IMG/VR virus record: IMGVR_UViG_2902405164_000001
Location: 1,012-65,011 of that record
Source of the DNA: a virus
Direction: 5' to 3' (one strand)
Length of the DNA stretch: 64,000 bases
Part shown: piece after piece, positions 41,193 through 54,295 of the stretch
Position numbering within the stretch: position 1 is the first letter of the stretch
Layout of the letters: the number at the start of each line of letters is the position of its first letter
Translations under genes and position numbers: made by a program
The notes under the pieces: model-generated
What the model saw: the letters and a program-made list of their open reading frames with translations, nothing else
Told to the model about the DNA's origin: nothing
Database searches by the model: none

Positions 41193-41546
41193 CTACCTCT
41201 GAAACCGCGGCACAGGACGGACGGCATCGTCATCCTGCTGCTGCATCTGGGCCTGCGTCGTCACAAAGAGAGACAGAGACTTGTAGAAGGCGTGATAGGT
41301 TGAGCCTTGCTCGCTGGCGAACTTGTAGCTCTCTCGTTGCCTGGCCGGTGAAAGCCGGCCCCACACCGAGGTCACGACGTCGTAGCTGAACTGCTCATCG
41401 CGCACGCAACTGGCGATCAGCCCTTTGTCCCTCAGGCTGGCGCATGCGCGGTCCACATCGTGAGGCGGCACGGGCAGACCTTCAGCCGCTGCGATTGAAG
41501 GCAGGGCCAGACAGGCCGTCACGGCGGCGATGAGAGCGTAGCGCAT
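41193..41546 (-). CDS. Secreted protein (moron)
   Basis: Signal peptide starting MRYAL like its neighbour. Confidence 0.75.
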   Translation of the reverse strand: MRYALIAAVTACLALPSIAAAEGLPVPPHDVDRACASLRDKGLIASCVRDEQFSYDVVTSVWGRLSPARQRESYKFASEQGSTYHAFYKSLSLFVTTQAQMQQQDDDAVRPVPRFQR

Positions 41547-41552
41547 TGCGGC

Positions 41553-41580
41553 AAAATAATTGCCGGCCTACGCCTTTCAA
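41553..41580 (-). promoter_or_regulatory. Putative sigma70 promoter giving leaderless moron mRNA
   Basis: TTGAAA-N16-TATTTT, 6 nt before ATG 41546; overlaps cggcaa/ttgccg inverted repeat. Confidence 0.55.
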
Positions 41581-41590
41581 AGGGGCTCAA

Positions 41591-42229
41591 ATGGCGAACG
41601 GTTCAATTGATATCCGCGAGCGCTTTGCGGATGAGACCGAGCTGCTGGAAACCGTCGTTGATGGCGTCCTGTCGCGTCTGCCGAAGGCGGGGCCGGTCAC
41701 GCTGGCCGAGGACAGCGCGGACGGTCACACCGCGAAGCTGCAGCCGACGACCAAGGCGATCACCCGCAAGCCCGATGGCACGACGGAGGAGGTGACACTG
41801 CCTGTGATGCCGGATGTGCCGGTCCACTTCATGGGCGCAGGCGGCATCACGACGACCCTGGCCCTCAAGCAGGGCGACGAAGGCTTCAGCGTCCCTGCCG
41901 CGCTCGGCATCGACGGGTGGCATCAGAACGGCGGCGTGCAGTCGCCGGGCGACACCCGCCAGCATGCGATGTGGGATGCGGTCTTCGTCCCAGGTGTCCG
42001 GTCGGACCCGAACAAGCTGAAGGGCGTCTCAACCAACTCTACGCAGACGCGGACCGACGACAAGCAGACGGTCCACGACGTGAGCCACGCGGCTGTGACC
42101 GCTGTCCGTGAGCAGAGCGCCCATCAGGTCAACGGCATGGCCGTGCAGAGCCAGAAGGACGGCTCCAGCCACGTGGTGGATGCCAAGACGATCCAGCACG
42201 TTGCCTCCAAGATCTTGCTGAACTGCTGA
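41591..42229 (+). CDS. Baseplate central spike (gpV/Gp138-like)
   Basis: PDVPVHF.G.GG...L..GDEG...IDGW..G...DAVF.PG. Confidence 0.85.
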   Translation: MANGSIDIRERFADETELLETVVDGVLSRLPKAGPVTLAEDSADGHTAKLQPTTKAITRKPDGTTEEVTLPVMPDVPVHFMGAGGITTTLALKQGDEGFSVPAALGIDGWHQNGGVQSPGDTRQHAMWDAVFVPGVRSDPNKLKGVSTNSTQTRTDDKQTVHDVSHAAVTAVREQSAHQVNGMAVQSQKDGSSHVVDAKTIQHVASKILLNC

Positions 42230-43101
42230 TGGCCGGCGGCTTCGTACCTTTCGGGCAGAACCTCCAGCTTCAGGGGGGCGCCCCGCTGATGAAGGCCGTG
42301 ACGGTCTTCGTCGAAAAGCTCGGCATCACCAAGCGGCTCGACGGCGGCCCCGGCCTTCAGGGCTTAATGCAGAAGGTGCTGCAGGACGGCAACCTGTCGT
42401 CGGTGATGCAGAACCCGATGGCGGGGCTGACGCAGGGCATTCAAGGCCAGCTCGGCGGAATGGTCTCGCAGCTTCAGGGAATGGCTGGCGGTGGGCCAGC
42501 GGGGCTCATCTCCGCGCTGACCGGAGGCTCAGGGCTCGGCAACGCACTCGGCCAGTTACAGGCGTCGGGCGACAACCTCGCTGGCCTGACGAACGGCGCG
42601 ACTGGGTTCTTCGCCATGATCGGCCATGCCAACACGGCGGACATGGCGGGCGCTGGCCTGCCAGCCGCTGCCGCGATGGATGTCGTCACCGGTCCGCTCA
42701 CACAGGGCGGCTTCCTCGGCAGCGTTAACACCGTCCTGCCGCAGGTCGTCTCGCAGGTCGTCGCCGGCACGATGAACCCGACCGACGCGACCAACTACGT
42801 TCTCGGCCAGATCGCCATGATCGGCAGCATCACCTCCGGCTCAGCTGCGGCTCTGGCCTACGGCGAGCAGATGCACCCGCTGATCTCCACAGTTGCAACG
42901 GTCGCGGGTGCGCTCGCGGTGCCCCCGACCTTCGATGCCGCCGGGTATCGTCAGGAAGGGGTCGCCACCGGCTTTCAGGGCGTTCTGGCCTCCATCGTCC
43001 AGCCAGACCCTGCGGCAACCATGGCGGCCTCTGTGGCGGCTCAGATCGACCACGTCGTGCCGCCCCCGGTGGACGTGGCCGCGATGACCTCGCTGGACTG
43101 A
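42229..43101 (+). CDS. Gly/Ala/Gln-rich hydrophobic protein of unknown function
   Basis: 290 aa, no Cys or Trp, TGATG-coupled to spike. Confidence 0.75.
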   Translation: MAGGFVPFGQNLQLQGGAPLMKAVTVFVEKLGITKRLDGGPGLQGLMQKVLQDGNLSSVMQNPMAGLTQGIQGQLGGMVSQLQGMAGGGPAGLISALTGGSGLGNALGQLQASGDNLAGLTNGATGFFAMIGHANTADMAGAGLPAAAAMDVVTGPLTQGGFLGSVNTVLPQVVSQVVAGTMNPTDATNYVLGQIAMIGSITSGSAAALAYGEQMHPLISTVATVAGALAVPPTFDAAGYRQEGVATGFQGVLASIVQPDPAATMAASVAAQIDHVVPPPVDVAAMTSLD

Positions 43102-43104
43102 CCG

Positions 43105-43500
43105 ATGAGAATTCGCAAGGTCGACGCGACAGGCGACGCCATTTTCGGTGGCGACCAAGCCTCTATCTGGCGCGACGTTCCCGACGCGGTCGGCGTCCTC
43201 GTCGAAGCCCGGCTGAACCTCTGGCAGGAGCAGTGGTGGCTGGATCGCTCTGAGGGCACGCCCTACGAGCAACAGGTGCTCGGCAAGCGCACCGAAGGCC
43301 TGCGCGATCCCGCCCTGCAGGCTCGCATCCTCGACACCCCCGGCGTGGTCGAGATCGAAGCCTACAGCAGCGTTCTTGATCGCCAGACCCGCGCTCTGGC
43401 CGTCTCGGCCACCATCCAGACCGTCTACTCGCGCGCCTACCTCGCGGGGCAGGGCGCCAACACCGCCAACATCACCGTCAAGGTCGAGAACGGTCGCTAA
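43105..43500 (+). CDS. Baseplate wedge/sheath initiator (gp25/W-like)
   Basis: MRIRKVDATGD..FG...WWLDRSEGTPY. Confidence 0.8.
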   Translation: MRIRKVDATGDAIFGGDQASIWRDVPDAVGVLVEARLNLWQEQWWLDRSEGTPYEQQVLGKRTEGLRDPALQARILDTPGVVEIEAYSSVLDRQTRALAVSATIQTVYSRAYLAGQGANTANITVKVENGR

Positions 43501-44702
43501 TGGGCGCTACCCCTGTCTGCCAGATCACGGCTGCCGGCTGCGTCCGCCCGACCTTCGCGGACTGCCTCGCCTACGTCCAGACGTCCTATCGGGCGATCTA
43601 CGGCCAGGATTTGAACCTGGACCCGGCCACGCAGGACGGCCAATTCCTCGCGCTTCTCGCCTACGCAATCCATGACGCCAACGGCGAGACGCTGGCGGCC
43701 TATAACTCGTTCTCGCCCAGCACGGCGCAGGGTACGGGGCTTGACCGCAACGTCAAGCTGAACGGCATCCGGCGCAAGCGGGCGACCTATTCCACTGCTC
43801 CCTTCCTCATCGTTGGGCAGGCCGGCATTGAGATCGACGGCGGCATCGTCACCGATGCGGCTGGCAATCAGTGGGCTCTACCGTCTGTTGTTGTCATTCC
43901 CGACATCGGGCAGATCACCGTCACGGCCACCTGCCAGACCATCGGAGCAATCACCCTCTCTGCAGGCGCCGTCGACACCGCCAACGGCAAGGGTTCCATC
44001 GCGACCATCACCCGCGGCTGGCAGACAGCCACGAACACTGCGGCAGCTTCCGTCGGCCTCGCCGTAGAGACGGACAGCGCACTCCGGCAGCGCCAAGCCA
44101 TCTCTACGGCCCTGCCGTCCCAGCGCCTCATCGACGGCTTGACCGGCGCCTTGGCCGCCATTGCAGGCGTCAACCGCCTGAAGGTCCACGAGAACCCGAC
44201 CAATGCTCGGGACGTCAACGGCATCCCGGGCCATATGATCGCGGCCGTGGTCGATGGTGGCGACCCTGCGGCCATCGCATCCGTGATTGAGCTGAAGAAG
44301 GGGCCGGGCGTCTCAACGTTCGGCACGACGGTGCAGACCGTTCAGCCTATCGACAACAGCACGATCCCGCAGGACGTGGCGTTCTTCTACCTGACCCAAG
44401 TTCCGATCACGTACCAAGTCACGGTGCGCAATCTCGGCGGATATACGGCCTCGGCCGAGGGTATCTGGAAAGCAGCGCTCGCGGATTTCGTGAACGGCCT
44501 GGCGATCGGCGAAGACGTGGAATGGGATCAGGCCTTCGCGGCAGCCAAGAACTTCGACGGCCTCGGATCTAAGACGTTCAAGATCATCTCGTTCAAGCAG
44601 GCGAGGGATGGGGGCACGCCAACGGAGGCCGATGTGCCGATTGCCTTCTATGAGGCCGGCATGTGCTCGGCGGCCAACATCGCCGTGACGGTCCAGGCCT
44701 AG
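43500..44702 (+). CDS. Baseplate J-like protein
   Basis: TQDGQ...A.G..LD, ETDSALRQRQ. Confidence 0.92.
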   Translation: MGATPVCQITAAGCVRPTFADCLAYVQTSYRAIYGQDLNLDPATQDGQFLALLAYAIHDANGETLAAYNSFSPSTAQGTGLDRNVKLNGIRRKRATYSTAPFLIVGQAGIEIDGGIVTDAAGNQWALPSVVVIPDIGQITVTATCQTIGAITLSAGAVDTANGKGSIATITRGWQTATNTAAASVGLAVETDSALRQRQAISTALPSQRLIDGLTGALAAIAGVNRLKVHENPTNARDVNGIPGHMIAAVVDGGDPAAIASVIELKKGPGVSTFGTTVQTVQPIDNSTIPQDVAFFYLTQVPITYQVTVRNLGGYTASAEGIWKAALADFVNGLAIGEDVEWDQAFAAAKNFDGLGSKTFKIISFKQARDGGTPTEADVPIAFYEAGMCSAANIAVTVQA

Positions 44703-44712
44703 GCGTTCCGAC

Positions 44713-45624
44713 ATGGCCAATTACAACATCACCGCGGACTCGACGCTCGTCGCGATCAACGGCGATTTCCCGACCGCTGATGCCAATCCTTACGCGCTCC
44801 CGCCGGCCATTACGAAAACGGCCGATGCCTACATGGGGCTTATCACGCCCTGGCAGGCCAACTCGGTCAAGGCCCGTTTCCTCGCGACGGTCCGGGCGAA
44901 CGTGCAGCCTCAGGCTGACGTTCAGGCTTTCGTCGCAGGCCTACCGCAGGCTTTCGACGTTGACGAGGCCATCGGCGTACAGCTTGACATCGACGGGCAG
45001 TGGATCGGGCGCGACCGCTACGTGCCTATCCCCCTACCTGACACGACCTTTGCTCTTGGCATTGAAGGCCGCGGTCTCGGGCAAGGGTACTGGCGGACCA
45101 ACTATGACGGCGAGAATGCCATCTCGTCCCTTCCCGACAGCCTCTACCGCCCGCTTCTCTACGCCAAGATCCTCGCGAACCGGTGGGACGGAACCGCTAC
45201 CATGGCGGTGCAGATCGTCCGCACGTACCTGACGGACCCGTCCACCATCGTGTTCGCGAATGACGGGGCGCGGGCGATCGTACCTCACCAAGGCGATGTG
45301 ATCTTCTCGCTCGGCGTTCCAGGGGCCGGCCTTGGGCAGGGCCGCTGGCTCGGCAAGATGGAATACCCTGCGACGCCCAAGCGCGTCGGCATGGCCTATA
45401 GCATCTGCATCTCCGGTAAGCTGCCGTCGCGAACCGATCTCTACATTCTCGCGAACGATCTCCTGCCGGTGAAGGCGATGGGCGTTGACGCCCGCATCTC
45501 CGTGACCTCGACCGACGGTGCTCCCGTCTTCGGGCTCGGCATGAACAACAGCCAGATCGGCGGCCTTGGCGTCGGGGCCTGGGGCCGAGATCCCGCGACC
45601 GTCGCCGCCACGCTGGTCGCCTAA
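44713..45624 (+). CDS. Baseplate wedge protein (DUF2612-like)
   Basis: FDVDEAIGVQLDIDGQWIG, YAKILANRWDG. Confidence 0.85.
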   Translation: MANYNITADSTLVAINGDFPTADANPYALPPAITKTADAYMGLITPWQANSVKARFLATVRANVQPQADVQAFVAGLPQAFDVDEAIGVQLDIDGQWIGRDRYVPIPLPDTTFALGIEGRGLGQGYWRTNYDGENAISSLPDSLYRPLLYAKILANRWDGTATMAVQIVRTYLTDPSTIVFANDGARAIVPHQGDVIFSLGVPGAGLGQGRWLGKMEYPATPKRVGMAYSICISGKLPSRTDLYILANDLLPVKAMGVDARISVTSTDGAPVFGLGMNNSQIGGLGVGAWGRDPATVAATLVA

Positions 45625-45701
45625 CCAGCCTCTTCCTCATCCCTCCCGCTCGCCGTCGCGCTCATCCGCGGCGCGCGGCTGCCTGCGCGTGAGATCCACA
45701 C

Positions 45702-46637
45702 ATGCCCACCAATGGCTTTCTGCCCAACTCGACCGGCGTCGGCGCCGTCGTCCTCAATGATGCCGACTATGCCGCAAGCGATGCGATCACGCAGGGAGCG
45801 CAGGTCGGCGAACTGCCGCCACAATACTATAACAAGGTGAACCGACAGACCTCGGTCATCGCCTCAATGATCGGCCAGTTCATCGTCGATAATGCGGCCG
45901 TTGACGCGAACGACAGCCAGAGCATCGCGACGCTTGAAGGCAACTTCATTCTTGGGCTGAAGGCGGTTTTGACCGGTCTTGCTACTTCGGTGGCGACGAC
46001 CGTTTACAAGAACATGCCTCCCGTCCAGCAGATTTTTGTAGACCCAGTCAACGGGTCCGAAACCAATGACGGAACCACGTCATCAAAAGCCCGCAAGGAT
46101 CTTGACACCGTACTTGACGAGCAGAAGAACGTCGGAACAGCCATCATTCTTCTGAACAACGCTCAGCTTATCCGGCGACGGAACGTCTATGCGTTTTTAG
46201 CGATATATGGTGCGCAAATCTCTGGGAATGCGCAGGGCTGGACGGCAACGCCGCGAGTCATCCAGTTTATCGGAACCGCAACGAACTCCCCTCTCCCTGA
46301 CGGCTCAACGTTCGGCTCAGGGTTCTGGCTCGACGGTCCGACGTTCGTTACCGATCAAATCATCTGGTCTATTCCGACCCAGGCTCCGAGCCAGACTTAT
46401 AACGATCACATCCGTTCCGAGTACGGAACGGGCGTGCTGATCGTCGGCTCGACGCTCAACGTGGCAGAAACTAACGCCGGCTTTCTTCTCGGAGCGTCTG
46501 CGGCGACGGTCCCGTTCGATAGCTTCCTCGATATCGGGCTGAACGCTGGGGCTCCCGGGCATCTGTTCCGTGGGGTTATCGCAGGGGCAAACCCCAACAC
46601 CCTGTTCCAGTACCGCAGCAACGTCACTTCGGCCTGA
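45702..46637 (+). CDS. Tail fibre protein
   Basis: NKVNRQTSVIASMIGQFI anchor; FVDPVNGSETNDG. Confidence 0.75.
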   Translation: MPTNGFLPNSTGVGAVVLNDADYAASDAITQGAQVGELPPQYYNKVNRQTSVIASMIGQFIVDNAAVDANDSQSIATLEGNFILGLKAVLTGLATSVATTVYKNMPPVQQIFVDPVNGSETNDGTTSSKARKDLDTVLDEQKNVGTAIILLNNAQLIRRRNVYAFLAIYGAQISGNAQGWTATPRVIQFIGTATNSPLPDGSTFGSGFWLDGPTFVTDQIIWSIPTQAPSQTYNDHIRSEYGTGVLIVGSTLNVAETNAGFLLGASAATVPFDSFLDIGLNAGAPGHLFRGVIAGANPNTLFQYRSNVTSA

Positions 46638-46666
46638 CCGGTCGCGATTAGGACGAGGGATCACCT

Positions 46667-47194
46667 ATGAGCACGTTCGACCGGCTGAACGCGACTGCGT
46701 TGACCGTGGATATCGACGGGATCGGCTATCGCGGCACCACGCTGGCTCAGCTTATGGCGCCGCCACGCTCTTTGACTGAGGCGCAGGTTCTTCCTGCAAT
46801 CCAGAGCGTTTTGAAGGGCTGGGTGGACGAGCAGGCCGAAGCCCTGCGCCAGAAGGTGATGACCGCTGGCGCCGGTCAGGCCATGGAATATCAAGAGGTG
46901 CGAGATGAGGCGAAAGCCGTCTTAGCGCTAGACGACCCGACGAAGGCATCGGGATCTGATTTTCCGATGCTGTCGGCTTCTATCGGGACGAACCTAGACC
47001 CGAACACAGGCAAGCCGACGTCGGACATTGCTGGCGAAGCGCGAGCAGCTAGCGAGGAAGCCAAGGCATGGCTTGCGATCGGTGCGCCGATTAGGGGTGC
47101 GCGGCTGAAGGGAAAGCAGTCGGTCGATAAGGCCGCCACCATCGCGGACGCCTGCGCGGTTGTCGACGCCATCTCCTGGCCCGCGCTGAGCTGA
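46667..47194 (+). CDS. Tail fibre assembly/chaperone-like protein
   Basis: GQAMEYQ..RDEA helical pattern; follows fibre. Confidence 0.6.
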   Translation: MSTFDRLNATALTVDIDGIGYRGTTLAQLMAPPRSLTEAQVLPAIQSVLKGWVDEQAEALRQKVMTAGAGQAMEYQEVRDEAKAVLALDDPTKASGSDFPMLSASIGTNLDPNTGKPTSDIAGEARAASEEAKAWLAIGAPIRGARLKGKQSVDKAATIADACAVVDAISWPALS

Positions 47195-47198
47195 CGCC

Positions 47199-48917
47199 AT
47201 GCCGATCGTTCCTGTCAATACGGGCACGCGCCCGAACGACGGCACGGGAGACAGCCCCTCCGTCGCTTTCGGAAAAACCAACGATAACGCGACCTACCTT
47301 GATCTAGCCAAACTGGACAAGGTGGGGGACGGATCAAGGCTGACGGGCGTCACCAAGCCTGCGGACTTGCCTGCCGCAGTCGCAGCGCAGGCGCCAAACG
47401 TCTCGCTGCCCATCGGCATCGGCTCCAGCTTGCCTTCGCCGTCGCTGGCGAAGATCGCGCGTGGGCAGGTGCCGATCTTCGATATGTTCGACGGGGCTGT
47501 CCGAGACGGCTCTACCGCGAACGAACCGCTGCTCAACCAGATGCTGAGCGACTTCAACGGCGCCGAGGTTCTGCCGAGTGGCCAGGGTCGTGGTCCGATC
47601 CTGGCGAAGAATAGCCCGATCATCGTACCGCCCAACGCTAAGCTGAGAAGCGTCGGCGGTGTGCAGAAGGCCGTCATCACCCGGCTGCACGGCTACACGG
47701 GCGATACCATGCAGATGGGATCCCCCACGGCTGGCGCCGGGACTGCGGAAGTGGACGGGTTCTGGCTGCTCCAGCCTGACAGATTGTTAGGCGCTATCCC
47801 GACGAGCACAACGAGTCTCCCGGGCCGCATCACGACGGCAATGACGCCTGTGTCGACGATCGTTGTTCCGACTTCCGCGGCATCTCTCGCCACACATCTC
47901 CGTGTCTATGGCAGTCAGGGCGGCGGTTTCCGAGGCTGGGCCACGGGCATGCCTTCCGCGGTCGTTCAGCACGGCGGCGACGGGTTCATGCTCGATCTGG
48001 AATATTTCGGCGGAGTTTGGGATCGCTTGCGACCGGCGCTCCAAGAAAGTTTCGCTGTTCTGACGACCATTTGGGATCCGGTGCACGGATATCCAACCAA
48101 GACGAGGGTTGTTCGGCCGAACTGGATCGGCGGCAACGTCAGCGCCGAACTTCGCGCGGTTCCAATCAACAACAAGACCTACTCGGCAAACGAGCGCCTG
48201 GGTCCTTACTGCGGCTGGTGGCACGCGGCCGGCGAATGCTGCGGGGTCGAGGCCGGGTTTACCGGGGGGTTTAATCATTCGAACTTCTTATTTTACCCGG
48301 GCGGTCCTGAACTGGTCAACGGCTCTCCGGCATGGGTCCAAATTCGACCGAAAATTCATCTCTCGGACATCGACGAGAGTATGGAGTTCGGGATCAGGGT
48401 TCACCGGAGCGACACGTCGCAGGCTGTCGTCAATCGGCCCAGTTTCTTCGGAAACGATCTCCACGGCCAGACGATCGGGCAGGGCGGCATTGAGATCACT
48501 GCGGCCGATGGGCTGTATTCGGTCTCACGCCTCAAGATGGTGGCGAACCGATTGTGCGGCTATCAGGGCGCCGGGATGCGCTTACTGGCGGTTGATGGCG
48601 GAGAAGTCATATCGACCGACATCAATGGATACAATATCGCAGCGTTCGACACGACACAGGGCGATCCGATCGATTATGGTGTGGGTGCACTTTTGGGCGG
48701 GACAACGCGCAATGTGTCCGTTCACGGCATCCGCGGCGGCGGCGGCGTCAACAACGACACCGATGTCAACAACTGCCAATGGGTGTTCGTAGACACCACT
48801 TCAGGATCGACCACTCCGCCGAACCAGGGCAACACCTATCGGTACGTGCGCCCGATCAACCTGGGGCTAGCGCCTGGCGTCGCTGTTGCCGCAGGCACGA
48901 ACGACACCGGGAGCTGA
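47199..48917 (+). CDS. Tailspike/receptor-binding protein, probable beta-helix depolymerase
   Basis: NTGTRPNDGTGD...AF.K.NDN anchor; Gly/Asn-rich beta-helix-like body. Confidence 0.7.
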   Translation: MPIVPVNTGTRPNDGTGDSPSVAFGKTNDNATYLDLAKLDKVGDGSRLTGVTKPADLPAAVAAQAPNVSLPIGIGSSLPSPSLAKIARGQVPIFDMFDGAVRDGSTANEPLLNQMLSDFNGAEVLPSGQGRGPILAKNSPIIVPPNAKLRSVGGVQKAVITRLHGYTGDTMQMGSPTAGAGTAEVDGFWLLQPDRLLGAIPTSTTSLPGRITTAMTPVSTIVVPTSAASLATHLRVYGSQGGGFRGWATGMPSAVVQHGGDGFMLDLEYFGGVWDRLRPALQESFAVLTTIWDPVHGYPTKTRVVRPNWIGGNVSAELRAVPINNKTYSANERLGPYCGWWHAAGECCGVEAGFTGGFNHSNFLFYPGGPELVNGSPAWVQIRPKIHLSDIDESMEFGIRVHRSDTSQAVVNRPSFFGNDLHGQTIGQGGIEITAADGLYSVSRLKMVANRLCGYQGAGMRLLAVDGGEVISTDINGYNIAAFDTTQGDPIDYGVGALLGGTTRNVSVHGIRGGGGVNNDTDVNNCQWVFVDTTSGSTTPPNQGNTYRYVRPINLGLAPGVAVAAGTNDTGS

Positions 48918-48919
48918 CC

Positions 48920-49141
48920 ATGGGGAAACTCAAGAAGAATGCAGACGGTACTTTCTCGATCGTTCACACGGCCAATGAGGTGAGCGCGGCCGAAGCGGCG
49001 AATGTGAAAACGGCCGACGCCAGGCAAGCTCAGGCCGAAGCCGATGCCGCCGCAGCGCAGCAGCGCTACGAAGACCGTATTGCGCGGGTCGCTGAGAGCC
49101 TGCCGGCGGACGGTGATCAGACCAGCGATCATGCGTCCTAA
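48920..49141 (+). CDS. Small hypothetical protein
   Basis: GGAG upstream; coiled-coil. Confidence 0.6.
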   Translation: MGKLKKNADGTFSIVHTANEVSAAEAANVKTADARQAQAEADAAAAQQRYEDRIARVAESLPADGDQTSDHAS

Positions 49142-49183
49142 GGTTGCGCGCTGATCCCCTTCTCATCGCCGAGACCGTAACCA

Positions 49184-49582
49184 ATGGCGATCACCGCTAG
49201 CAGCCCCGACGCGTTCTTCGACGGGGAAGATTTTGCGTGGGATGCGGATCTCACCGAAGAAGACGGGGTGACCCCGCTCGTCATCGGAGCCGGGGATCGG
49301 CTGTTCGTCCGCTTCAAAGACGATGCCCGCACGCTCGTTGGCATCTGCGACAGCGCCGCATCGGACCAGTCGCTCGTCATCACCAACGGAGCGGCCGGCG
49401 CGGTATCTTTCCTGATCCCGGCCGCAGGACGAGCCTGGACCCCGCCTTTCCTAGGTTTGCTCCGGCTCGGTATCACCGCGAACGTGTTCGGGGATTTGTA
49501 CCGCTATGCCGCCGGCTCGGCGACCCCGAAGGGCGTTGCCCGATTTGAACTGACGGTGCTCCCTGGAACCGGGGCGGCTTGA
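49184..49582 (+). CDS. BppU-like beta-sandwich virion protein
   Basis: Pattern and position before collagen-like gene. Confidence 0.5.
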   Translation: MAITASSPDAFFDGEDFAWDADLTEEDGVTPLVIGAGDRLFVRFKDDARTLVGICDSAASDQSLVITNGAAGAVSFLIPAAGRAWTPPFLGLLRLGITANVFGDLYRYAAGSATPKGVARFELTVLPGTGAA

Positions 49583-50214
49583 TGGGTGGCGTTTCCCTTC
49601 CCCGCTTCACCGTGACCGCCCGTCAGCGCCCCAGTGTGGCCGTAGCTGCGCAGGGAAGGCCCGTAGTGGCTTCCGTGACGGTTCGGGGGCAACAGGGCGT
49701 CCAGGGAGCGACGGGCCTTCAGGGTCCTCCTGGCACCAACCTCGGCTTCGGCGACATCATCTACACCGACCGCACGTCCGGGCCCGAGGATCGGTTTGAG
49801 GCGAACGTCCGGCAGCAGGTCCGCTTCTCCAGCGCGACGACGACGGTCATGGACAAGCTGCTGCCGCCGTTCGTGGGGCATCAGTTCCTCGCCAACGACC
49901 GGCTCATCGCCCGAGCGCTCAACGACGTCTACAACATTCGCATCAACCTGATCGTCTCGTCGGATGCGTCCAGCACCCGGCTGAAGATGGATTGCGACGC
50001 GCAGTCGGCCTTTGGCCCGCTGCAGGCGGACGACAGCACGCTGTTTCAGTCGGCCGGCATCCCCGAACGGGTGACGTTCAGCTTCGCCATCCAGGTGCAG
50101 GCCAACACCCTTGCCAACGGCGCCGCCTTCTACCTGACCAGCACGCAGCCCGTGACCGTGCTGAGCGAGACCCTGTTCATCATTCCCGCGACGGTGCAGC
50201 CCGAGACCCTGTGA
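49579..50214 (+). CDS. Fibre-associated protein with short collagen-like G-X-Y run
   Basis: GQQGVQGATGLQGPPG. Confidence 0.7.
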   Translation: MMGGVSLPRFTVTARQRPSVAVAAQGRPVVASVTVRGQQGVQGATGLQGPPGTNLGFGDIIYTDRTSGPEDRFEANVRQQVRFSSATTTVMDKLLPPFVGHQFLANDRLIARALNDVYNIRINLIVSSDASSTRLKMDCDAQSAFGPLQADDSTLFQSAGIPERVTFSFAIQVQANTLANGAAFYLTSTQPVTVLSETLFIIPATVQPETL

Positions 50215-50591
50215 TGATCCTGGTCTGGTACGATCCCGACTGTGATGAGATCTGGGTGTCGGGGCAGGAGCAGTCCTATGCCCGGCGCTCGCTAGTGGCT
50301 GGGGCGACCGGCGGCAACATCACCGTCATGATGAAGGCGGCTGTGGCTGGCGATTACGTCGTCAACACGCCCTGGGCCAACGTCGGCAACTGCGACGGGG
50401 TGCCGTTCCCCGATCAGGGATCGGTGCTGGCCTACCTGCAGGACGAGTTCGCCAAGAGCAGGCCGCCCACGTCCGGCCCGCGAGGCCCCGGCATCTTCAC
50501 GGCGCCCGGCGATCCTGACCCGACCTTCGGCATGGTCGGCGACCTCTACCTCGACGCCGTCACCGGCAACCTCTTCACCAAGGGAGACTAG
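50214..50591 (+). CDS. Fibre-module protein ending in GDLYLD motif
   Basis: TGATG start; C-terminus GPRG...GDLYLDAVTGNLFTKGD. Confidence 0.7.
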   Translation: MILVWYDPDCDEIWVSGQEQSYARRSLVAGATGGNITVMMKAAVAGDYVVNTPWANVGNCDGVPFPDQGSVLAYLQDEFAKSRPPTSGPRGPGIFTAPGDPDPTFGMVGDLYLDAVTGNLFTKGD

Positions 50592-50592
50592 T

Positions 50593-50745
50593 ATGGCTTG
50601 GACCAAGCAAGGCAATCTCAAGGGACCGCGCGGCGTCACGTGGTTCACCGGCACGGGCGCGCCGACCACGGCCAACACCACCGGCTCGATCACGGGCGAT
50701 CTCTACCTCGACCTTTCGACCGGCGACATCTACGTCCTATCGTGA
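50593..50745 (+). CDS. 50-aa single fibre-repeat protein (not in track)
   Basis: MAWTKQGNLKGPRGVTWFTGTGAPTTANTTGSITGDLYLDLSTGDIYVLS; GGAG upstream. Confidence 0.8.
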   Translation: MAWTKQGNLKGPRGVTWFTGTGAPTTANTTGSITGDLYLDLSTGDIYVLS

Positions 50746-50753
50746 GGTGAGCC

Positions 50754-51062
50754 GTGGCCTGGGGCAAGATCGGCAACATCAAAGGGCCGGGCTCGCTCGT
50801 GGACCTAGGCTCCATCACGATCGGCCAGTCGGCGACCATCGCCATAGCGGCCGGCATTCGCACTGTCACGGTGACTGTGACCGGGCTTCTGGCCGGTGAC
50901 CGGGTGCTGCTCTCGCCGTTGACCGTGTTCCCCGGCGGGTATCTCGTCGGGCAGCCGGTCGCTCGTGCCGCCAACACCCTAGACGTTCAAGTCTACGCGC
51001 CAGCCCTCGTTATCGGGGCGGCGTACTCGTTCCAGGCGAAAGTGACAGCCGTTCGACCGTGA
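50754..51062 (+). CDS. Fibre-module/tip protein starting with AWxKxGNxKGP
   Basis: GAGG upstream; beta-rich C-terminus. Confidence 0.75.
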   Translation: MAWGKIGNIKGPGSLVDLGSITIGQSATIAIAAGIRTVTVTVTGLLAGDRVLLSPLTVFPGGYLVGQPVARAANTLDVQVYAPALVIGAAYSFQAKVTAVRP

Positions 51063-51065
51063 GCC

Positions 51066-51368
51066 TCACGCCTTAGCGGGCTCGGCGAGGATGTGGTTAA
51101 TCAGAGCTGCAGTTGTGGCACGAGCCGCGTCGCTCCCGATCTCAATCCAAGGAGTGTAGGGGTCATCTGGGTTTGGCAGGCAAGTGGCCCCGGCAGCTTC
51201 TGCTGCGCTTTCGCTCGGCTCCCTCAGAGCCAAGAGAACAGCACGGACGATGGCTTCGGCAGCCTCGTCACGGTCATCAAGGCTGACGGTAGGCCGCCCC
51301 TCATCGTCGTATGGGCAGGGGATCTCGGCTCTCGCCAAGTCGCACAAGCGCTTCATATCAGGCGTCAT
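51066..51368 (-). CDS. Hypothetical protein (inverted cassette)
   Basis: Early-gene-like ORF. Confidence 0.65.
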   Translation of the reverse strand: MTPDMKRLCDLARAEIPCPYDDEGRPTVSLDDRDEAAEAIVRAVLLALREPSESAAEAAGATCLPNPDDPYTPWIEIGSDAARATTAALINHILAEPAKA

Positions 51369-51467
51369 CTCTCTACCCTCTCAGCAGCAACGCGCTTCCA
51401 ACCGTCATCAGACCCCAAGCTAGGGCGATTGAAGTAACGGTAGCGGCAGTGAGGTATTCGGATCGGT

Positions 51468-51734
51468 TCATGGCAGCGGACCTCGGCTGAAAGCGAACAT
51501 CTCGGCAGCGGCCTTGCTCGCGATCCGCTCAAGCATCGGCCCTACAGCCCAACCTTCCTTCCGGCGGAAGGCGCGGACCACTCTGTCATCCTCATCAGCT
51601 TGCCAAGCCATATATAAATCGTAGGGCACCGGGATTTCCAATGTGTCCGGCACCGGCGGCAGGCTAGCGATGATCGCGTTCACATCAGCGATGATCTCAT
51701 CCGGCGTCTTGCCTGCCCAACTAGCCCCGCTCAT
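51468..51734 (-). CDS. Hypothetical protein (inverted cassette)
   Basis: KTPDEIIADVN; coupled. Confidence 0.6.
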   Translation of the reverse strand: MSGASWAGKTPDEIIADVNAIIASLPPVPDTLEIPVPYDLYMAWQADEDDRVVRAFRRKEGWAVGPMLERIASKAAAEMFAFSRGPLP

Positions 51735-52057
51735 CCTTCCGTCCCTTCTATCCGTTCAGGGCAGATGCCGCTCTTCCAGCCGGCGATCTCCAATGCGGGA
51801 GGCGCAGGCCAGAGCGGCGTCACCAACCGGCCATGCTTCTCGGCGAGATTGAAGGCGTGACGGTGGGCGCCGCTCCGATCCAGTGGTTCGCCTTCGACAA
51901 GTGAGATGCGCAGATCTGACGGCTCTCCACCCTGCGCGCGAATATGCTGCCGCAGAGCATCGGCAGTCACGTCCTCTGGCTGGATCGCGTAATTATCGCC
52001 AATCCAGTTCGGGCTCTTGCTTTCCAAAAGCCAGATCCGAAACCGATCTTTGCTCAT
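51731..52057 (-). CDS. Hypothetical protein (inverted cassette); start uncertain
   Basis: Coupled ORF. Confidence 0.55.
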   Translation of the reverse strand: MSKDRFRIWLLESKSPNWIGDNYAIQPEDVTADALRQHIRAQGGEPSDLRISLVEGEPLDRSGAHRHAFNLAEKHGRLVTPLWPAPPALEIAGWKSGICPERIEGTEG

Positions 52058-52092
52058 CCTCTCCTCCAGACGTTGTGTAAGCTTCGCGGGGG

Positions 52093-52329
52093 TTAGGCGG
52101 GACGCCATCGCGTCGGTGTCCAAGCGAGAAGTTCAGCCTCGGTCTCGCTGACCCATCCCTCTGGCAACCAATCTGTGCCGCCGTCGCCGTCATCCATGTC
52201 GAACATCTCTCGCCAGTAGCCGCGAATTTCGTGCGCCCGGTCAGAGAGAACGATCACAGGGCCAAAGATGCCGAACCGCAAGTTCGGCGTAGCCTTCGGA
52301 GCTGTGGCGATGTCCTGCCATTCGCTCAT
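52093..52329 (-). CDS. DUF551-like phage protein
   Basis: MSEWQDIATAPK...W...PTRWRP. Confidence 0.75.
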   Translation of the reverse strand: MSEWQDIATAPKATPNLRFGIFGPVIVLSDRAHEIRGYWREMFDMDDGDGGTDWLPEGWVSETEAELLAWTPTRWRPA

Positions 52330-52526
52330 TTCAGCGCCTCCGCAACATCTGGCCTGACGCCGTAGTGGATCATCAGGTTCAGGCAGAGGGCGACAGAGCC
52401 GGGTATCGGCGCATCGCCAGCCACCCACTTCCGAACCGTCCGACCATCAACGCTGAACAGCCTAGAGGCGCCCATCTGGGTCAGCCCGAGCGCATTCAGC
52501 GCAGCCTTCAGTTCCTTGTGCGTCAC
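52326..52526 (-). CDS. Small XRE-like HTH regulator
   Basis: LGLTQMGASRLFSVDGRTVRKW. Confidence 0.85.
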   Translation of the reverse strand: MTHKELKAALNALGLTQMGASRLFSVDGRTVRKWVAGDAPIPGSVALCLNLMIHYGVRPDVAEALK

Positions 52527-52532
52527 GCTCTG

Positions 52533-52561
52533 ACGATAGGACTTTAGGGCCTACCCCGCAA
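52533..52561 (-). promoter_or_regulatory. Putative sigma70 promoter, leaderless, with imperfect palindrome in spacer
   Basis: TTGCGG-N17-TATCGT, 6 nt before GTG 52526; TAGG...CCTA dyad. Confidence 0.6.
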
Positions 52562-52578
52562 GCAAAATCAGGCTACTC

Positions 52579-53079
52579 ATGCTCCGCTTCCTCATCGCGC
52601 TGGCGCTCGCCTTCGCCTGCACTCCTGCTATGGCTGCAAGCGATGGGACGGAGCCTGATCCAGTCCTTACGCCAGGCGCTATTCGCACGACAGACCGGGC
52701 CGAGATCGTGGGCGTGAACACCGCGACGGTCCGCAACGTCACGGGCGCGGAGAAGCTGGCCGTCTACCGCCGCTATGGGATGACGGGCCCGAGTGACACG
52801 ATCCCCGGCACAAACCACCAAGGTCCATTCGAGGTGGATCACCGCCTGCCGCTCTGTGCCGGTGGCGCGAACGACATCACCAATTTGTGGATCCAGGCGA
52901 GCGACGGCCCTTGGACCTTCCACGACAAGGACCGGCTTGAGGACCGCATCTGCGCGAAGCTCAAGCGCGGGGTGATCTCCGTCGAGCAGGCGCAGGCCGT
53001 ATTCCTCGGCGACTGGAAGGCCGGCTACGTCGCTGAGTTCGGCGGCGCTCCCGCGCATGAAGGGGAGGCCGGGCATTGA
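52579..53079 (+). CDS. Signal-peptide-bearing HNH-like protein
   Basis: MLRFLIALALAFACTPAMAA; EVDHRLPLCAGGANDITNLW. Confidence 0.8.
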   Translation: MLRFLIALALAFACTPAMAASDGTEPDPVLTPGAIRTTDRAEIVGVNTATVRNVTGAEKLAVYRRYGMTGPSDTIPGTNHQGPFEVDHRLPLCAGGANDITNLWIQASDGPWTFHDKDRLEDRICAKLKRGVISVEQAQAVFLGDWKAGYVAEFGGAPAHEGEAGH

Positions 53080-53591
53080 CGGCTCTCTTCATCCAGAAGG
53101 TCGGCGTCTACGGCCCGCGCCTGATGCACGATGTCGGCTTGCCGGGCATCGACGCCGCAGCCGTGTTCGGCAATGTCGGGCATGAGTGTGCAGGCTTCAC
53201 TGCCTATCACGAAGGCGGCCAGCCATCCCGGAAGGGCGGCGTTTCGTGGTGCCAGTGGACGAACGATCGGCGCCATCTCTTTGAGGCTTGGTGCCGCCAG
53301 CATGGCCTTGCGCTTACCTCTGACGCGGCCGGCTACAGCTTTCTCGTTCATGAGTTAACCGGCTCGGAAGCGGGCGCTGTCGCCGCCATGCGCCGGCACT
53401 CGACGCTAGAGGCCAAGGTCGCGGCTTTCGAGGCCGAGTTCGAGCGCGCCCGCGTCAAAGCGATCTCGCGGCGCGTCGTTTGGGCGAGGCTCGCCCTATC
53501 GGCGCTGCACCCCGGCCATCCCGCGACAGCCGCGCCGCCTAAGCCTGCGCGCCGCAAGCCAATCGCCGACAAGCACCGAGGGCATCACTGA
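53076..53591 (+). CDS. Phage tail-lysozyme-family muramidase
   Basis: AAAVFGNVGHECAG...CQWT..RR. Confidence 0.75.
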   Translation: MTALFIQKVGVYGPRLMHDVGLPGIDAAAVFGNVGHECAGFTAYHEGGQPSRKGGVSWCQWTNDRRHLFEAWCRQHGLALTSDAAGYSFLVHELTGSEAGAVAAMRRHSTLEAKVAAFEAEFERARVKAISRRVVWARLALSALHPGHPATAAPPKPARRKPIADKHRGHH

Positions 53592-54295
53592 TGGCGGATC
53601 TGTCCGTTCGCGAAATTCAGCAGGCTCTGATCGCCCGCGGTTACGAGCTGGGGGCGTCAGGCGCTGATGGCGACGCTGGCCCGAAGACGGTCGCCGCCCT
53701 GCGCGCCTTCCAGAAGATCGCCGGCCTCGTGCCGGATGGGATCGCCGGTCCCATGACCCAGAAAGCCCTCATCGCCAACGACATCAGCCAGCGTCGCACC
53801 GCCACTGATCAGCCCGCCTGGCTCACGCTCGCTGCGGCCGAACTCGGCACGGAAGAAGGCGCCGGCAAGAAGAACAACCCGAAGGTGGTCGCCTACTACA
53901 AGGACGCTGACTTCCCAGGCATCAAGAATGATGCGGTCGCTTGGTGTGCGGCCTTCTGCAACGCCATGCTGCATCGGGCTGGGCAGAAGACTTCGGGCAG
54001 CCTCGCCGCTCGTTCATTCGAGAGCTGGGGTGTCGGTTTAAAAACCCCCGTGCTCGGCTGTATCGCCACCAAGAAGCGCGGCACCGGATGGCAGGGGCAC
54101 TGCGGGTTCGTCGTCGGCGCCAACAAAACTGAGGTGTTCCTGCTCGGCGGAAACCAGTCTGACGAGGTGTCTATTGCCTCGTTCAAGCGCTCTGAGATCA
54201 CCGCCTATCGCTGGCCGTCTGGCGTGCCGATCCCGACACAGCCGAACCTCCCGACAACGGTTGCAGGCGCGAAGGCTGGCGTTAAGGAGTCGTGA
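53591..54295 (+). CDS. Endolysin: peptidoglycan-binding domain plus TIGR02594/CHAP-like domain
   Basis: DGDAGPKTVAALRAFQ...DGIAGP; AWCAAF, GHCGFV, LLGGNQSDEV. Confidence 0.9.
   Translation: MADLSVREIQQALIARGYELGASGADGDAGPKTVAALRAFQKIAGLVPDGIAGPMTQKALIANDISQRRTATDQPAWLTLAAAELGTEEGAGKKNNPKVVAYYKDADFPGIKNDAVAWCAAFCNAMLHRAGQKTSGSLAARSFESWGVGLKTPVLGCIATKKRGTGWQGHCGFVVGANKTEVFLLGGNQSDEVSIASFKRSEITAYRWPSGVPIPTQPNLPTTVAGAKAGVKES

Follow-up and report, generated by a model that had tools for sequence, protein, structure and literature searches.

How can a fibre be built when its repeat unit is cut by gene boundaries? This question is raised by three genes, here called A, B and C, which adjoin in a phage of the Methylobacterium type. 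They lie in a stretch of viral DNA of 64,000 nucleotides, the whole of which is called the window. A, B and C do not hold their repeat in a single polypeptide, as the continuous repeat proteins of other phages do, since two successive units are each divided between two products.

Three genes and a divided repeat unit

The features of the locus are as follows.

49582..50214, + strand: upstream gene of the fibre cluster, P0004; about 210 aa from the ATG at 49582, with a C-terminal domain behind a short Gly-X-Y run
50214..50591, + strand: gene A, 125 aa, ending ...GPRGPGIFTAPGDPDPTFGMVGDLYLDAVTGNLFTKGD, then TAG
50214..50462, + strand: N-terminal part of gene A (residues 1-83), a conserved adaptor domain that presumably attaches on the virion side
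50463..50591, + strand: gene A residues 84-125 and stop; a GPRGPG run, then strands 1-3 of one unit, the putative acceptor tail (...GDLYLDAVTGNLFTKGD)
50580..50586, + strand: Shine-Dalgarno sequence for B, AAGGGAG, encoded within the 3' end of A, with 6 nt between it and the ATG
50593..50745, + strand: gene B, 50 aa with an ATG start, from MAWTKQGNLKGPRG to GDLYLDLSTGDIYVLS, then TGA
50593..50745, + strand: parts of gene B; head strand (residues 1-10), two Gly-X-Y triplets (11-16) and strands 1-3 of the second unit (17-50)
50744..50749, + strand: GAGGTG, a Shine-Dalgarno-like sequence for C that shares bases with the stop of B and lies 4 nt before the GTG
50754..51062, + strand: gene C, 102 aa with a GTG start, beginning (M)AWGKIGNIKGP
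50754..51062, + strand: parts of gene C; head strand (residues 1-12), then a beta-sandwich body, read as the distal tip or cap

B, the middle or spacer piece, is unannotated. In Pfam and PHROGs, the only matches for these three genes were two weak ones of B to unnamed PHROGs, and the collagen triple helix repeat (PF01391) matched none of them. For P0004, whose TGA stop overlaps the ATG of A (ATGA), there is a match to PHROG 8270 (E 2e-7), and the score against Pfam Collagen PF01391 is 12.6 bits, below the gathering cut-off of 27.2. Homologues of P0004 precede A-type genes at other loci, which are given here by their L numbers (L001, L004, L006 and L071).

The unit itself, of about 40 residues, has the consensus I-x-T-G-x-G-x-P ... 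G-D-x-Y-x-D-x-x-T-G-x-Y-Y-x-K-x-x-G-x-W-x-x-x-G-N-L-x-G-P-x-G, with Gly-X-Y runs on both sides. With A as the query, phmmer finds 78 proteins at E≤1e-3; in many of these, between 5 and 14 stretches are matched, and the A tail is matched with E values down to 3e-38. These searches lead to proteins from phages and metagenomes in which the units are continuous, with up to 14 tandem copies (P0005; others are P0007 and P0036). No Pfam family was found for the continuous-unit proteins. Pfam Flagellin_D3, OCRE and DUF1318 matches on the long repeat proteins were disregarded as short hairpin look-alikes without a reported domain, and phmmer of the repeat against PDB sequences gave chance antibody matches only.

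A profile built from 51 continuous units shows how the pieces fit together. It runs over the A/B junction without a gap and scores 55 bits, compared with 29 for A alone; over the B/C junction it aligns with a one-residue deletion at about 30-31 bits. A alone covers profile positions 3-35 only and the B tail positions 2-33 only, and the remainder is supplied by the next gene. In a predicted model of two continuous units (pLDDT 78), each unit has four strands and a two-residue turn joins strands 3 and 4. On this model, the cut falls in the turn between strands 3 and 4, within the unit rather than between units. The distance from the strand-3 aromatic residue to the strand-4 Trp is 6 residues in the continuous unit and 5-6 residues in 26 of 38 split junctions. 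In addition, five homologues of the A tail (39-46% identity) all stop two residues past the conserved K.

The original prediction had described three separate genes with these ends and starts, each with its own ribosome-binding site and in differing frames. The coordinates and sequences of the open reading frames agree with this, and a Shine-Dalgarno sequence was found for each of A, B and C; that of B is also seen at the equivalent position (AAGGAG or AAGGGA) in L009, L011, L012 and L013. The start coordinates modulo 3 are 0, 1 and 0 for A, B and C, and a stop lies in C's frame one codon upstream of the C start in the window (1-3 codons across loci). The range first given, 49579-51062, holds for the part with A, B and C, but 49582-50214 belongs to the separate gene P0004, outside gene A. 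The continuous single-chain unit, which the original prediction had ascribed to collagen-like phage fibres, does exist in the tandem proteins found with A. The claim that the unit is split twice at one junction is likewise borne out by the profile and by the residue spacing, in which tail and head rebuild the unit in register.

Conservation of the trio and recurrence of the junction

Outside the window, an A-type base, B and C are kept together at seven loci, which come from separate assemblies (L009, L010, L011, L012, L071, L072 and L013, the last of which leaves its contig inside B). L009 belongs to a prophage of Methylobacterium sp. OAE515. Since L010 repeats L009 and L071 is L012-like, the seven represent five distinct lineages. 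In the trio loci the base has 64-126 aa, B 50-57 aa and C 101-102 aa. In L070, B (48 aa) is likewise present, but the base is another one and so is the cap, of 131 aa; over the trio loci and L070, B thus occurs with three kinds of base and two kinds of cap. The B orthologues, of 48-57 aa, differ in length by whole Gly-X-Y triplets only, from 2 triplets in the window to as many as 5. Purifying selection acts on B, with a dN/dS of 0.07-0.25 at a dS of 0.3-0.9. Across the trio loci, the start codons and Shine-Dalgarno sites are conserved. Because the stop codons (TGA, TAG or TAA) and the spacers (1 or 2 nt between A and B, 8 or 9 nt between B and C) vary among loci, there is no fixed frame relation.

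Between the window and L009, the identity is 69% for the A tail, 94% for B and 66% for C, and 33% for the N-terminal domain of A. This domain is 33-42% identical in loci with the common A-tail/B/C cassette; it is 90% identical in L004/L005, where the C-terminus and the downstream genes differ. Judged by these identities, the A tail, B and C travel together as a cassette.

The original prediction had proposed a survey of B copy number in relatives, and had held that one intact gene in relatives would imply decay. A single B gene is found per locus, the trio is conserved, and no fused relative was found. When A was searched by phmmer against 1.84 billion representatives with no length limit, the A-tail homologues were only of 121-126 aa; in a search that allowed 56-179 aa, all C homologues were of 100-102 aa. 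Among cultured phages, blastn of the region gave no match, and tblastn of C gave only weak matches to isolated small genes of Xanthomonas phages, whose context is uninformative. A search of IMG/VR with C for related loci gave no relative. We also considered a specificity code, in which head position 6 would covary with the residue that follows the aromatic of the tail; FIKES with SKL in L011 looked compensatory. It was dropped because L070, L071 and L072 do not fit and the cap head of L070 resembles the B head.

The junction is also present well beyond the trio. Loci were retrieved with the head motif M-A-W-x-K-x-G-N-x-K-G-P, and the tail motif was GD-Y-D..TGD-Y. In such loci, to which the adjacency counts apply rather than to phages at large, a gene with a tail ending lies just upstream of 38 of the 48 distinct head genes (79%). 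Tail-motif endings are present in 62 of the 6,507 open frames in the 588 kb retrieved, and for 42 of the 62 (68%) a head gene follows within 115 nt. The tail-head adjacency is not chance. The layout of base, middle and cap that had been predicted recurs, as gene order, in unrelated phages, with such chains in L023, L036, L037 and L017 and in gp16-gp18 of Nocardia phage NBR1. Middle proteins of phages other than that of the window are long (187-298 aa, with long collagen runs). A tblastn search with B gave no match at E≤1e-3, and the NBR1 matches surfaced only at a relaxed threshold. In the literature on collagen-like tail fibres, strand complementation and NBR1 we found no account of the junction, which is not proof of absence. 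The same cut, recurring in many unrelated phages, seems to be undescribed.

Proposed fibre assembly and its alternatives

Since each gene carries part of one unit, cut at the same hairpin turn, end-to-end plugging is the most likely arrangement. We suggest, with a probability of about 0.65 on the sequence evidence, that the products form head-to-tail, non-covalent joints that are completed in trans and give a chain of base, spacer and tip. A, B and C would be separate virion fibre proteins of a contractile-tailed phage, with their genes at the distal end of its tail-fibre cluster. The N-terminal domain of A would anchor the chain to the virion, and its tail would give strands 1-3 of the first unit. 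Strand 4 would come from the N-terminus of B, which after removal of Met would read A-W-T-K-Q-G-N-L-K-G-P and continue into the short Gly-X-Y linker. B would in turn give strands 1-3 of the second unit, with strand 4 contributed by the N-terminus of C and leading into the beta-sandwich tip. We expect one layer of B per fibre, and C would contact the receptor. The AlphaFold2 model of C (mean pLDDT 83) is all beta, and its Foldseek matches, which are weak (E 0.1-0.3, probability about 0.9, TM 0.45), are the C-terminal domains of the HK620, LKA1 gp49 and APK14 gp49 tailspikes. The fibre is probably trimeric, as suggested by length changes in whole Gly-X-Y triplets together with a weak likeness to collagen trimerization domains.

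A doubtful variant, a special case of this chain which the original prediction had put forward together with completion in trans, is that the head of B also docks on the tail of B. Fibres would then be A-(B)n-C, with n and the fibre length set by the B:C ratio and not by gene length. B, as a 50-residue self-complementing brick, would make from a gene of 150 nt a nicked, non-covalent version of the long continuous repeat fibres. B carries both half-sites, and a virtual unit of B tail and B head scores 44.5 bits on the profile, above the approximately 31 bits for B tail and C head. In L070, the cap after B begins MPWTKSGNLKG, which is near-identical to B's own MPWTKQGNLKG. Since this cap head almost matches the head of B, the tail of B would accept a B-like head, and the sequence is compatible with B-on-B docking. 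Nevertheless, the tail ends of A and B differ consistently across loci (F/Y-x-K-x-x in A, Y-V/S-L-S in B). Apart from such docking, a separate 50-aa spacer in single copy has no easy explanation. B is also a module that moves between several bases and caps, and a comparable head-plus-tail mini-gene of 60 aa is present in unrelated low-GC phages; but each locus carries one B gene and no more. B starts with ATG behind a strong Shine-Dalgarno sequence and C with GTG in the window. On the other hand, the B gene itself adjusts the length of its product, with 0-3 added Gly-X-Y triplets, which would matter little with a variable n, and the long middle pieces of other phages suggest that length is gene-encoded. 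Phage fibres also rarely show uncontrolled polymerisation. If the 50-aa spacer does polymerise, the phage would be setting its fibre length in an unusual manner, and more generally the pairing of MAW head with GD-Y tail would act as a universal connector by which phages mix bases, spacers and tips.

Less probable still, we think, is that the heads are not completed by the preceding tails at all. They could be a shared N-terminal anchor that holds several alternative distal proteins at one common site, or mainly a conserved DNA stretch through which distal cassettes recombine, with adjacency reflecting cassette order. Such a role would suit a head that is more uniform across distant phages than the internal fourth strands are, and B has indeed been recombined with different bases and caps; but the recombination breakpoint between the window and L004 is inside A, away from the junctions. 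The pairing of heads and tails is also imperfect. No tail-ending gene is upstream of 10 of the 48 heads, about 20 of the 62 tail-ending frames have no head gene downstream, and L017 has four heads and three tails. The association nonetheless runs in both directions, as the fractions of 79% and 68% show. Some tails are long, extending 11-22 residues further, and may be complete units. In L022 and L026 the extra residues include a stretch with a Trp, which may itself serve as strand 4 of the tail; no donated strand may then be needed in these loci. Against this, tails stop where the fourth strand is missing and the next gene supplies it in register, with the spacing preserved at most split junctions and a gapless profile. 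Lastly, gene decay, sequencing error or programmed recoding, by which frameshifting or readthrough would rejoin one long fibre gene, is very improbable and on the sequences effectively refuted: though the pieces read as one continuous repeat protein and in the window no stop interrupts B's frame over the 86 codons before its start, the breaks are identical in the seven other loci at a synonymous divergence of up to about 0.9 and a low dN/dS, the stops, spacers and frame offsets vary, C's frame is closed just upstream of its start, the start codons and Shine-Dalgarno sites are conserved, and neither the A nor the C search gave a fused homologue.

If the joints of the base-spacer-tip chain work as proposed, they represent a compact plug and socket, in which the first ten residues of one protein complete the three-strand tail of the protein before it and so link fibre segments that are encoded separately. 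The persistence of very small, unannotated genes like B in fibre clusters would then be explained. Multi-gene fibres could be recognised by annotators from a tail-ending gene followed by an M-A-W-x-K-x-G-N start. Distal tips could be exchanged between phages with the proximal part undisturbed, and B is common to different bases and caps. In addition, the pair would be a natural, very short tag and acceptor for placing new receptor-binding tips on phage or tailocin scaffolds in laboratory host-range studies.

Comparison with known systems

In the continuous repeat proteins, unlike in A, B and C, every unit is covalently continuous within one chain. A parallel in a cultured phage is Nocardia phage NBR1 (NC_016569), where gp16, gp17 and gp18 form an equivalent three-gene chain. 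There, gp16 ends ...GDYYIDTSTGTIYRLGD, gp17 starts MAWNVTGNIQGP and ends ...GDMYLDTQTGDVYLLS, and gp18 starts MAWDKV. The genes sit between those of the major tail protein and the tail assembly chaperone, and gp17 is annotated 'tail fiber protein'; we found no published comment on the split. NBR1 differs from the phage of the window in being an actinobacterial siphovirus, and its middle piece is of 187 aa with long collagen runs.

The only solved structure of the motif is the crown domain of VP88 from Singapore grouper iridovirus, SGIV (PDB 8hif chain y4; Foldseek E 1e-4, profile E 0.008). In this virus, which is a eukaryotic one, VP88 is a minor capsid protein anchored in the membrane (PMC10090177). 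Its unit, unlike those of the window, is continuous in one chain and not part of a fibre, and it is uninformative on trimers. The best structural match of the modelled unit is the trimerization domain of the multiplexin collagens XV and XVIII (PDB 3n3f, 9bnb; Z 5.4 and 5.0, rmsd 2.4-2.7 Å, 48-52 residues aligned), which is also a four-strand module of about 50 residues beside a collagen helix. With an identity of 8-10% and Z scores in the commonly seen range, this is a likeness of fold only.

The long tail fibre of T4 is likewise made from several genes. In that fibre, gp34-gp35-gp36-gp37 are joined end to end with the receptor-binding part last (PMC5537660). Unlike the joints proposed for A, B and C, those of the T4 fibre are not described as a repeat unit that two chains share. 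PHROGs and Pfam gave no sequence relation between the T4 fibre and A, B or C.

In chaperone-usher pili, each subunit has an incomplete beta fold, to which the following subunit adds its N-terminal strand, and the resulting head-to-tail fibre has a base, repeats and a tip. Their pilins have an Ig-like fold, depend on a periplasmic chaperone and an usher, and are monomeric subunits. Among the neighbouring genes at 41546-47194 and 47199-54295, no Pfam or PHROGs match to a pilin, chaperone or usher was found, and the unit model is structurally closest to the trimerization domains of collagens XV and XVIII and to SGIV VP88 rather than to Ig-like pilins. Thus, donor-strand exchange in these pili would be an analogy, sharing only its logic with A, B and C, which would build a phage fibre assembled in the cytoplasm, probably trimeric, from a small four-strand module.

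Genes of the locus and the position of the cut

There are four genes in this region, not three, and they lie among tail and lysis genes as follows.

43105-44702: baseplate wedge genes
45702-46637: tail fibre gene
49582-50214: P0004, about 210 aa; its stop (TGA) and the start of A overlap as ATGA
50214-50591: A, 125 aa
50593-50745: B, 50 aa
50754-51062: C, 102 aa, GTG start

Judging by the positions of the baseplate wedge and tail fibre genes, A-B-C makes up the distal end of a tail-fibre cluster in a contractile-tailed phage, with lysis genes directly after. The IMG/VR record is 65.5 kb with direct terminal repeats and is rated complete; the window covers nearly all of it. Since relatives are found in Methylobacterium genomes, a Methylobacterium or closely related host is probable. 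A 572-aa protein at 47199-48917 has a typical fibre N-terminus and zero Pfam or PHROG matches, and is possibly a beta-helix tailspike.

The original prediction described split genes in different frames, each with its own ribosome-binding site. This holds, except that 49579-50214, within the range it gave, belongs to a separate gene. The reading frames of A, B and C differ; the Shine-Dalgarno sequence of B (AAGGGAG) lies within A's last codons, and that of C (GAGGTG) overlaps B's stop. A ends in ...GDLYLDAVTGNLFTKGD, B begins MAWTKQGNLKGPRG and finishes GDLYLDLSTGDIYVLS, and the N-terminus of C is (M)AWGKIGNIKGP. P0004 is conserved together with the N-domain of A (compare L001 3266-3805, L004 3219-4001 and L071 1562-2137) and may be the binding partner of that domain. 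It has a short Gly-X-Y run, then G-D-I-I-Y-T-D-R-T-S-G, apparently the hairpin motif in degenerate form.

Querying 1.84 billion representative proteins with A by phmmer, without a length limit, gave 78 matches. Many of these are long proteins, such as P0005 (1018 aa), in which the final 40 residues of A find 5-14 matching stretches, and thus the continuous unit within one chain, described in the original prediction, does exist. The repeat is G-S-Q-I-x-T-G-x-G-x-P-x-x-x-x-G-x-x-G-D-x-Y-x-D-x-x-T-G-x-Y-Y-x-K-x-x-G-x-W-x-x-x-G-N-L-x-G-P-x-G, and Gly-X-Y runs of variable length lie between copies. In an AlphaFold2 model of P0005:135-239, which spans two continuous units (28-row alignment, mean pLDDT 78), each unit has four strands, with a two-residue turn joining strand 3 (the TG-YY-K stretch) to strand 4 (the W-x-x-x-G stretch). 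Because of the position of this turn, and because the Gly-X-Y inserts follow G-N-L-x-G-P outside the unit, the gene boundary falls inside the modelled unit, at the turn linking strands 3 and 4, and not between units. The tail (strands 1-3, GD-Y) ends one gene and the head (strand 4, M-A-W-x-K-x-G-N-x-K-G-P) begins the next. A profile built from 51 continuous units spans A residues 91-125 plus B residues 1-15 with zero gaps (55 bits), while A alone scores 29 bits over positions 3-35; over B tail plus C head there is a single-residue deletion, in the turn. Head position 2 is Ala or Pro in all B and C family members. With these residues Met excision is expected, exposing A-W or P-W, and this would leave space for two chain ends in the turn.

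Proposed assembly of the fibre and possible role of B

The most economical reading, to which we give a probability of roughly 0.65, is a non-covalent head-to-tail fibre. A would be the base, anchored via its N-domain, B a one-unit spacer and C the tip, and every joint would be one beta unit built from two gene products. That heads and tails touch, that the fibre is trimeric and how many B layers it has are all inferred.

The contigs of A and B homologues added seven loci, all from separate assemblies, that carry an A-type base, B and C: L009 (the Methylobacterium sp. OAE515 chromosome), L010, L011, L012, L071, L072 and L013, whose contig ends within B. Five distinct lineages are represented, since L010 repeats L009 and L071 is L012-like. 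A is a mosaic. In L004/L005, residues 1-83 show 90% identity, followed by a different C-terminus and unrelated distal genes; its N-domain is only 33-42% identical or replaced (L070 has an 86-aa base, L072 one of 64 aa) in loci sharing the A tail, B and C. Against L004 4001-4447, the recombination breakpoint directly follows the conserved ...YLQ-EFAK (near residue 83), within the gene and not at a gene junction. In the eighth locus, L070 (1644-2448), B (48 aa) is kept, and both the base (86 aa) and the cap (131 aa) are unrelated to those of the window. The head of this cap, MPWTKSGNLKG, is nearly identical to that of B; a Laminin_G_3 protein and a Sortilin/BNR-like protein are encoded next. Because bases are swapped and this cap resembles B in its head, B behaves as a portable spacer and heads look promiscuous.

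B orthologue lengths vary only by whole Gly-X-Y triplets (GPRG, GPQGPRG, GPKGDQGPRG, up to GAKGDTGAQGPRG), as a translated, collagen-type linker would. Base-middle-cap chains also occur in L023, L036 and L037, in the cultured Nocardia phage NBR1 (gp16, 96 aa; gp17, 187 aa; gp18, 125 aa) and in the low-GC phage L017 (base 453 aa, middle 298 aa, mini-middle 60 aa, two caps). In NBR1 (L040 1760-2999) gp16-gp18 sit between the major tail protein and tail assembly chaperone genes; as this position is odd for a tail fibre, the chain may decorate the tail tube. L017 308-6663 (IMG/VR 3300029783_000006), and also L014 and L020, have three tail-ending genes (453, 298 and 60 aa) and four head-starting genes (67, 298, 60 and 296 aa), and this excess of heads suggests alternative caps or chain branching.

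It was originally proposed that B polymerises on itself, so that B supply sets fibre length. The promiscuous heads, that of the L070 cap included, fit this idea, and a stand-alone 50-aa single-copy spacer is otherwise odd. However, there is one B gene at each locus, B length is tuned at the gene level by triplets, and other phages have long middle pieces. The evidence points both ways, and we regard self-polymerisation as unlikely.

Recurrence and conservation of the split

Two scans of IMG/VR bear on the head-to-tail fibre more widely. Codons matching M/V-A-W-x-K-x-x-N-[LIM]-K-G-P occurred at 26 loci, with essentially all matches at gene starts and an upstream gene, in another frame, finishing ...TGD-Y plus a few residues. 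Without the start codon there were 51 unique instances, about half inside continuous repeats and half at gene starts. Over all loci, a tail-ending gene is just upstream in 38 of 48 distinct head genes, usually 0-14 nt away, and the tail motif ends only 62 of 6,507 open frames of at least 45 aa, with a head gene next in 42 of the 62; as loci were retrieved via the head search, these figures give association, not the frequency of the arrangement among phages. Between the strand-3 aromatic and the strand-4 Trp lie 5 or 6 residues in 26/38 junctions (6 in the continuous unit). Heads could instead be a shared anchor or recombination patch unrelated to tails, but we consider this quite improbable because tail and head are in exact register and their association runs both ways.

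Some tail-ending genes have 11-22 extra residues past the hairpin (L022, L026 and L058 tails; L016, L023 and L036 bases). One group finishes ...(M/I)IPGG(K/I); others have a Trp stretch, perhaps a fourth strand of their own. The mechanism at these junctions may be another one.

The split itself is conserved. Five diverged A homologues (39-46% identity, 121-126 aa) all end two residues past the conserved Lys. Stop codons vary (TGA, TAG, TAA), as do the spacers, of 1 or 2 nt between A and B and 8 or 9 nt between B and C; thus no fixed frame relation is kept, and recoding into a single chain is not credible. A stop in C's frame lies 1-3 codons upstream of the C start. Among the three proteins, conservation is highest in B (78-94% identity; dN/dS 0.07-0.25 at dS 0.3-0.9). 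One intact gene in relatives, which the original prediction took to imply decay, was not found: there is no fused form among A homologues (phmmer, no length limit) or C homologues (the search accepted 56-179 aa, and all were 100-102 aa long). With separate loci, variable stops and spacers, these dN/dS values and no fused homologue, decay or recoding is effectively excluded.

Comparison with known systems

Literature searches and the NBR1 annotation gave no account of a fibre repeat unit shared by two successive gene products, or of the MAW head/GD-Y tail junction. Multi-protein phage fibres are known, as is strand donation between pilus subunits. There is no Pfam family for the ~40-residue unit, and simple sequence search gave no solved homologue. 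The unit model is most similar to the collagen XV and XVIII trimerization domains (Z 5.4 and 5.0, values rated common; rmsd 2.4-2.7 Å over 48-52 residues). The C model is a beta sandwich (pLDDT 83), weakly similar to the C-terminal domains of several tailspikes (E 0.1-0.3, TM 0.45). Another match of the unit model is to the SGIV VP88 crown domain (Foldseek E 1e-4); VP88 is a membrane anchor protein of the iridovirus capsid (PMC10090177). VP88 itself carries the unit sequence motif (unit profile E 0.008), and in this inner-membrane anchor protein the motif is in the crown domain (PDB 8hif chain y4, residues ~328-438). Thus, the small unit is common to phages and a eukaryotic large DNA virus.
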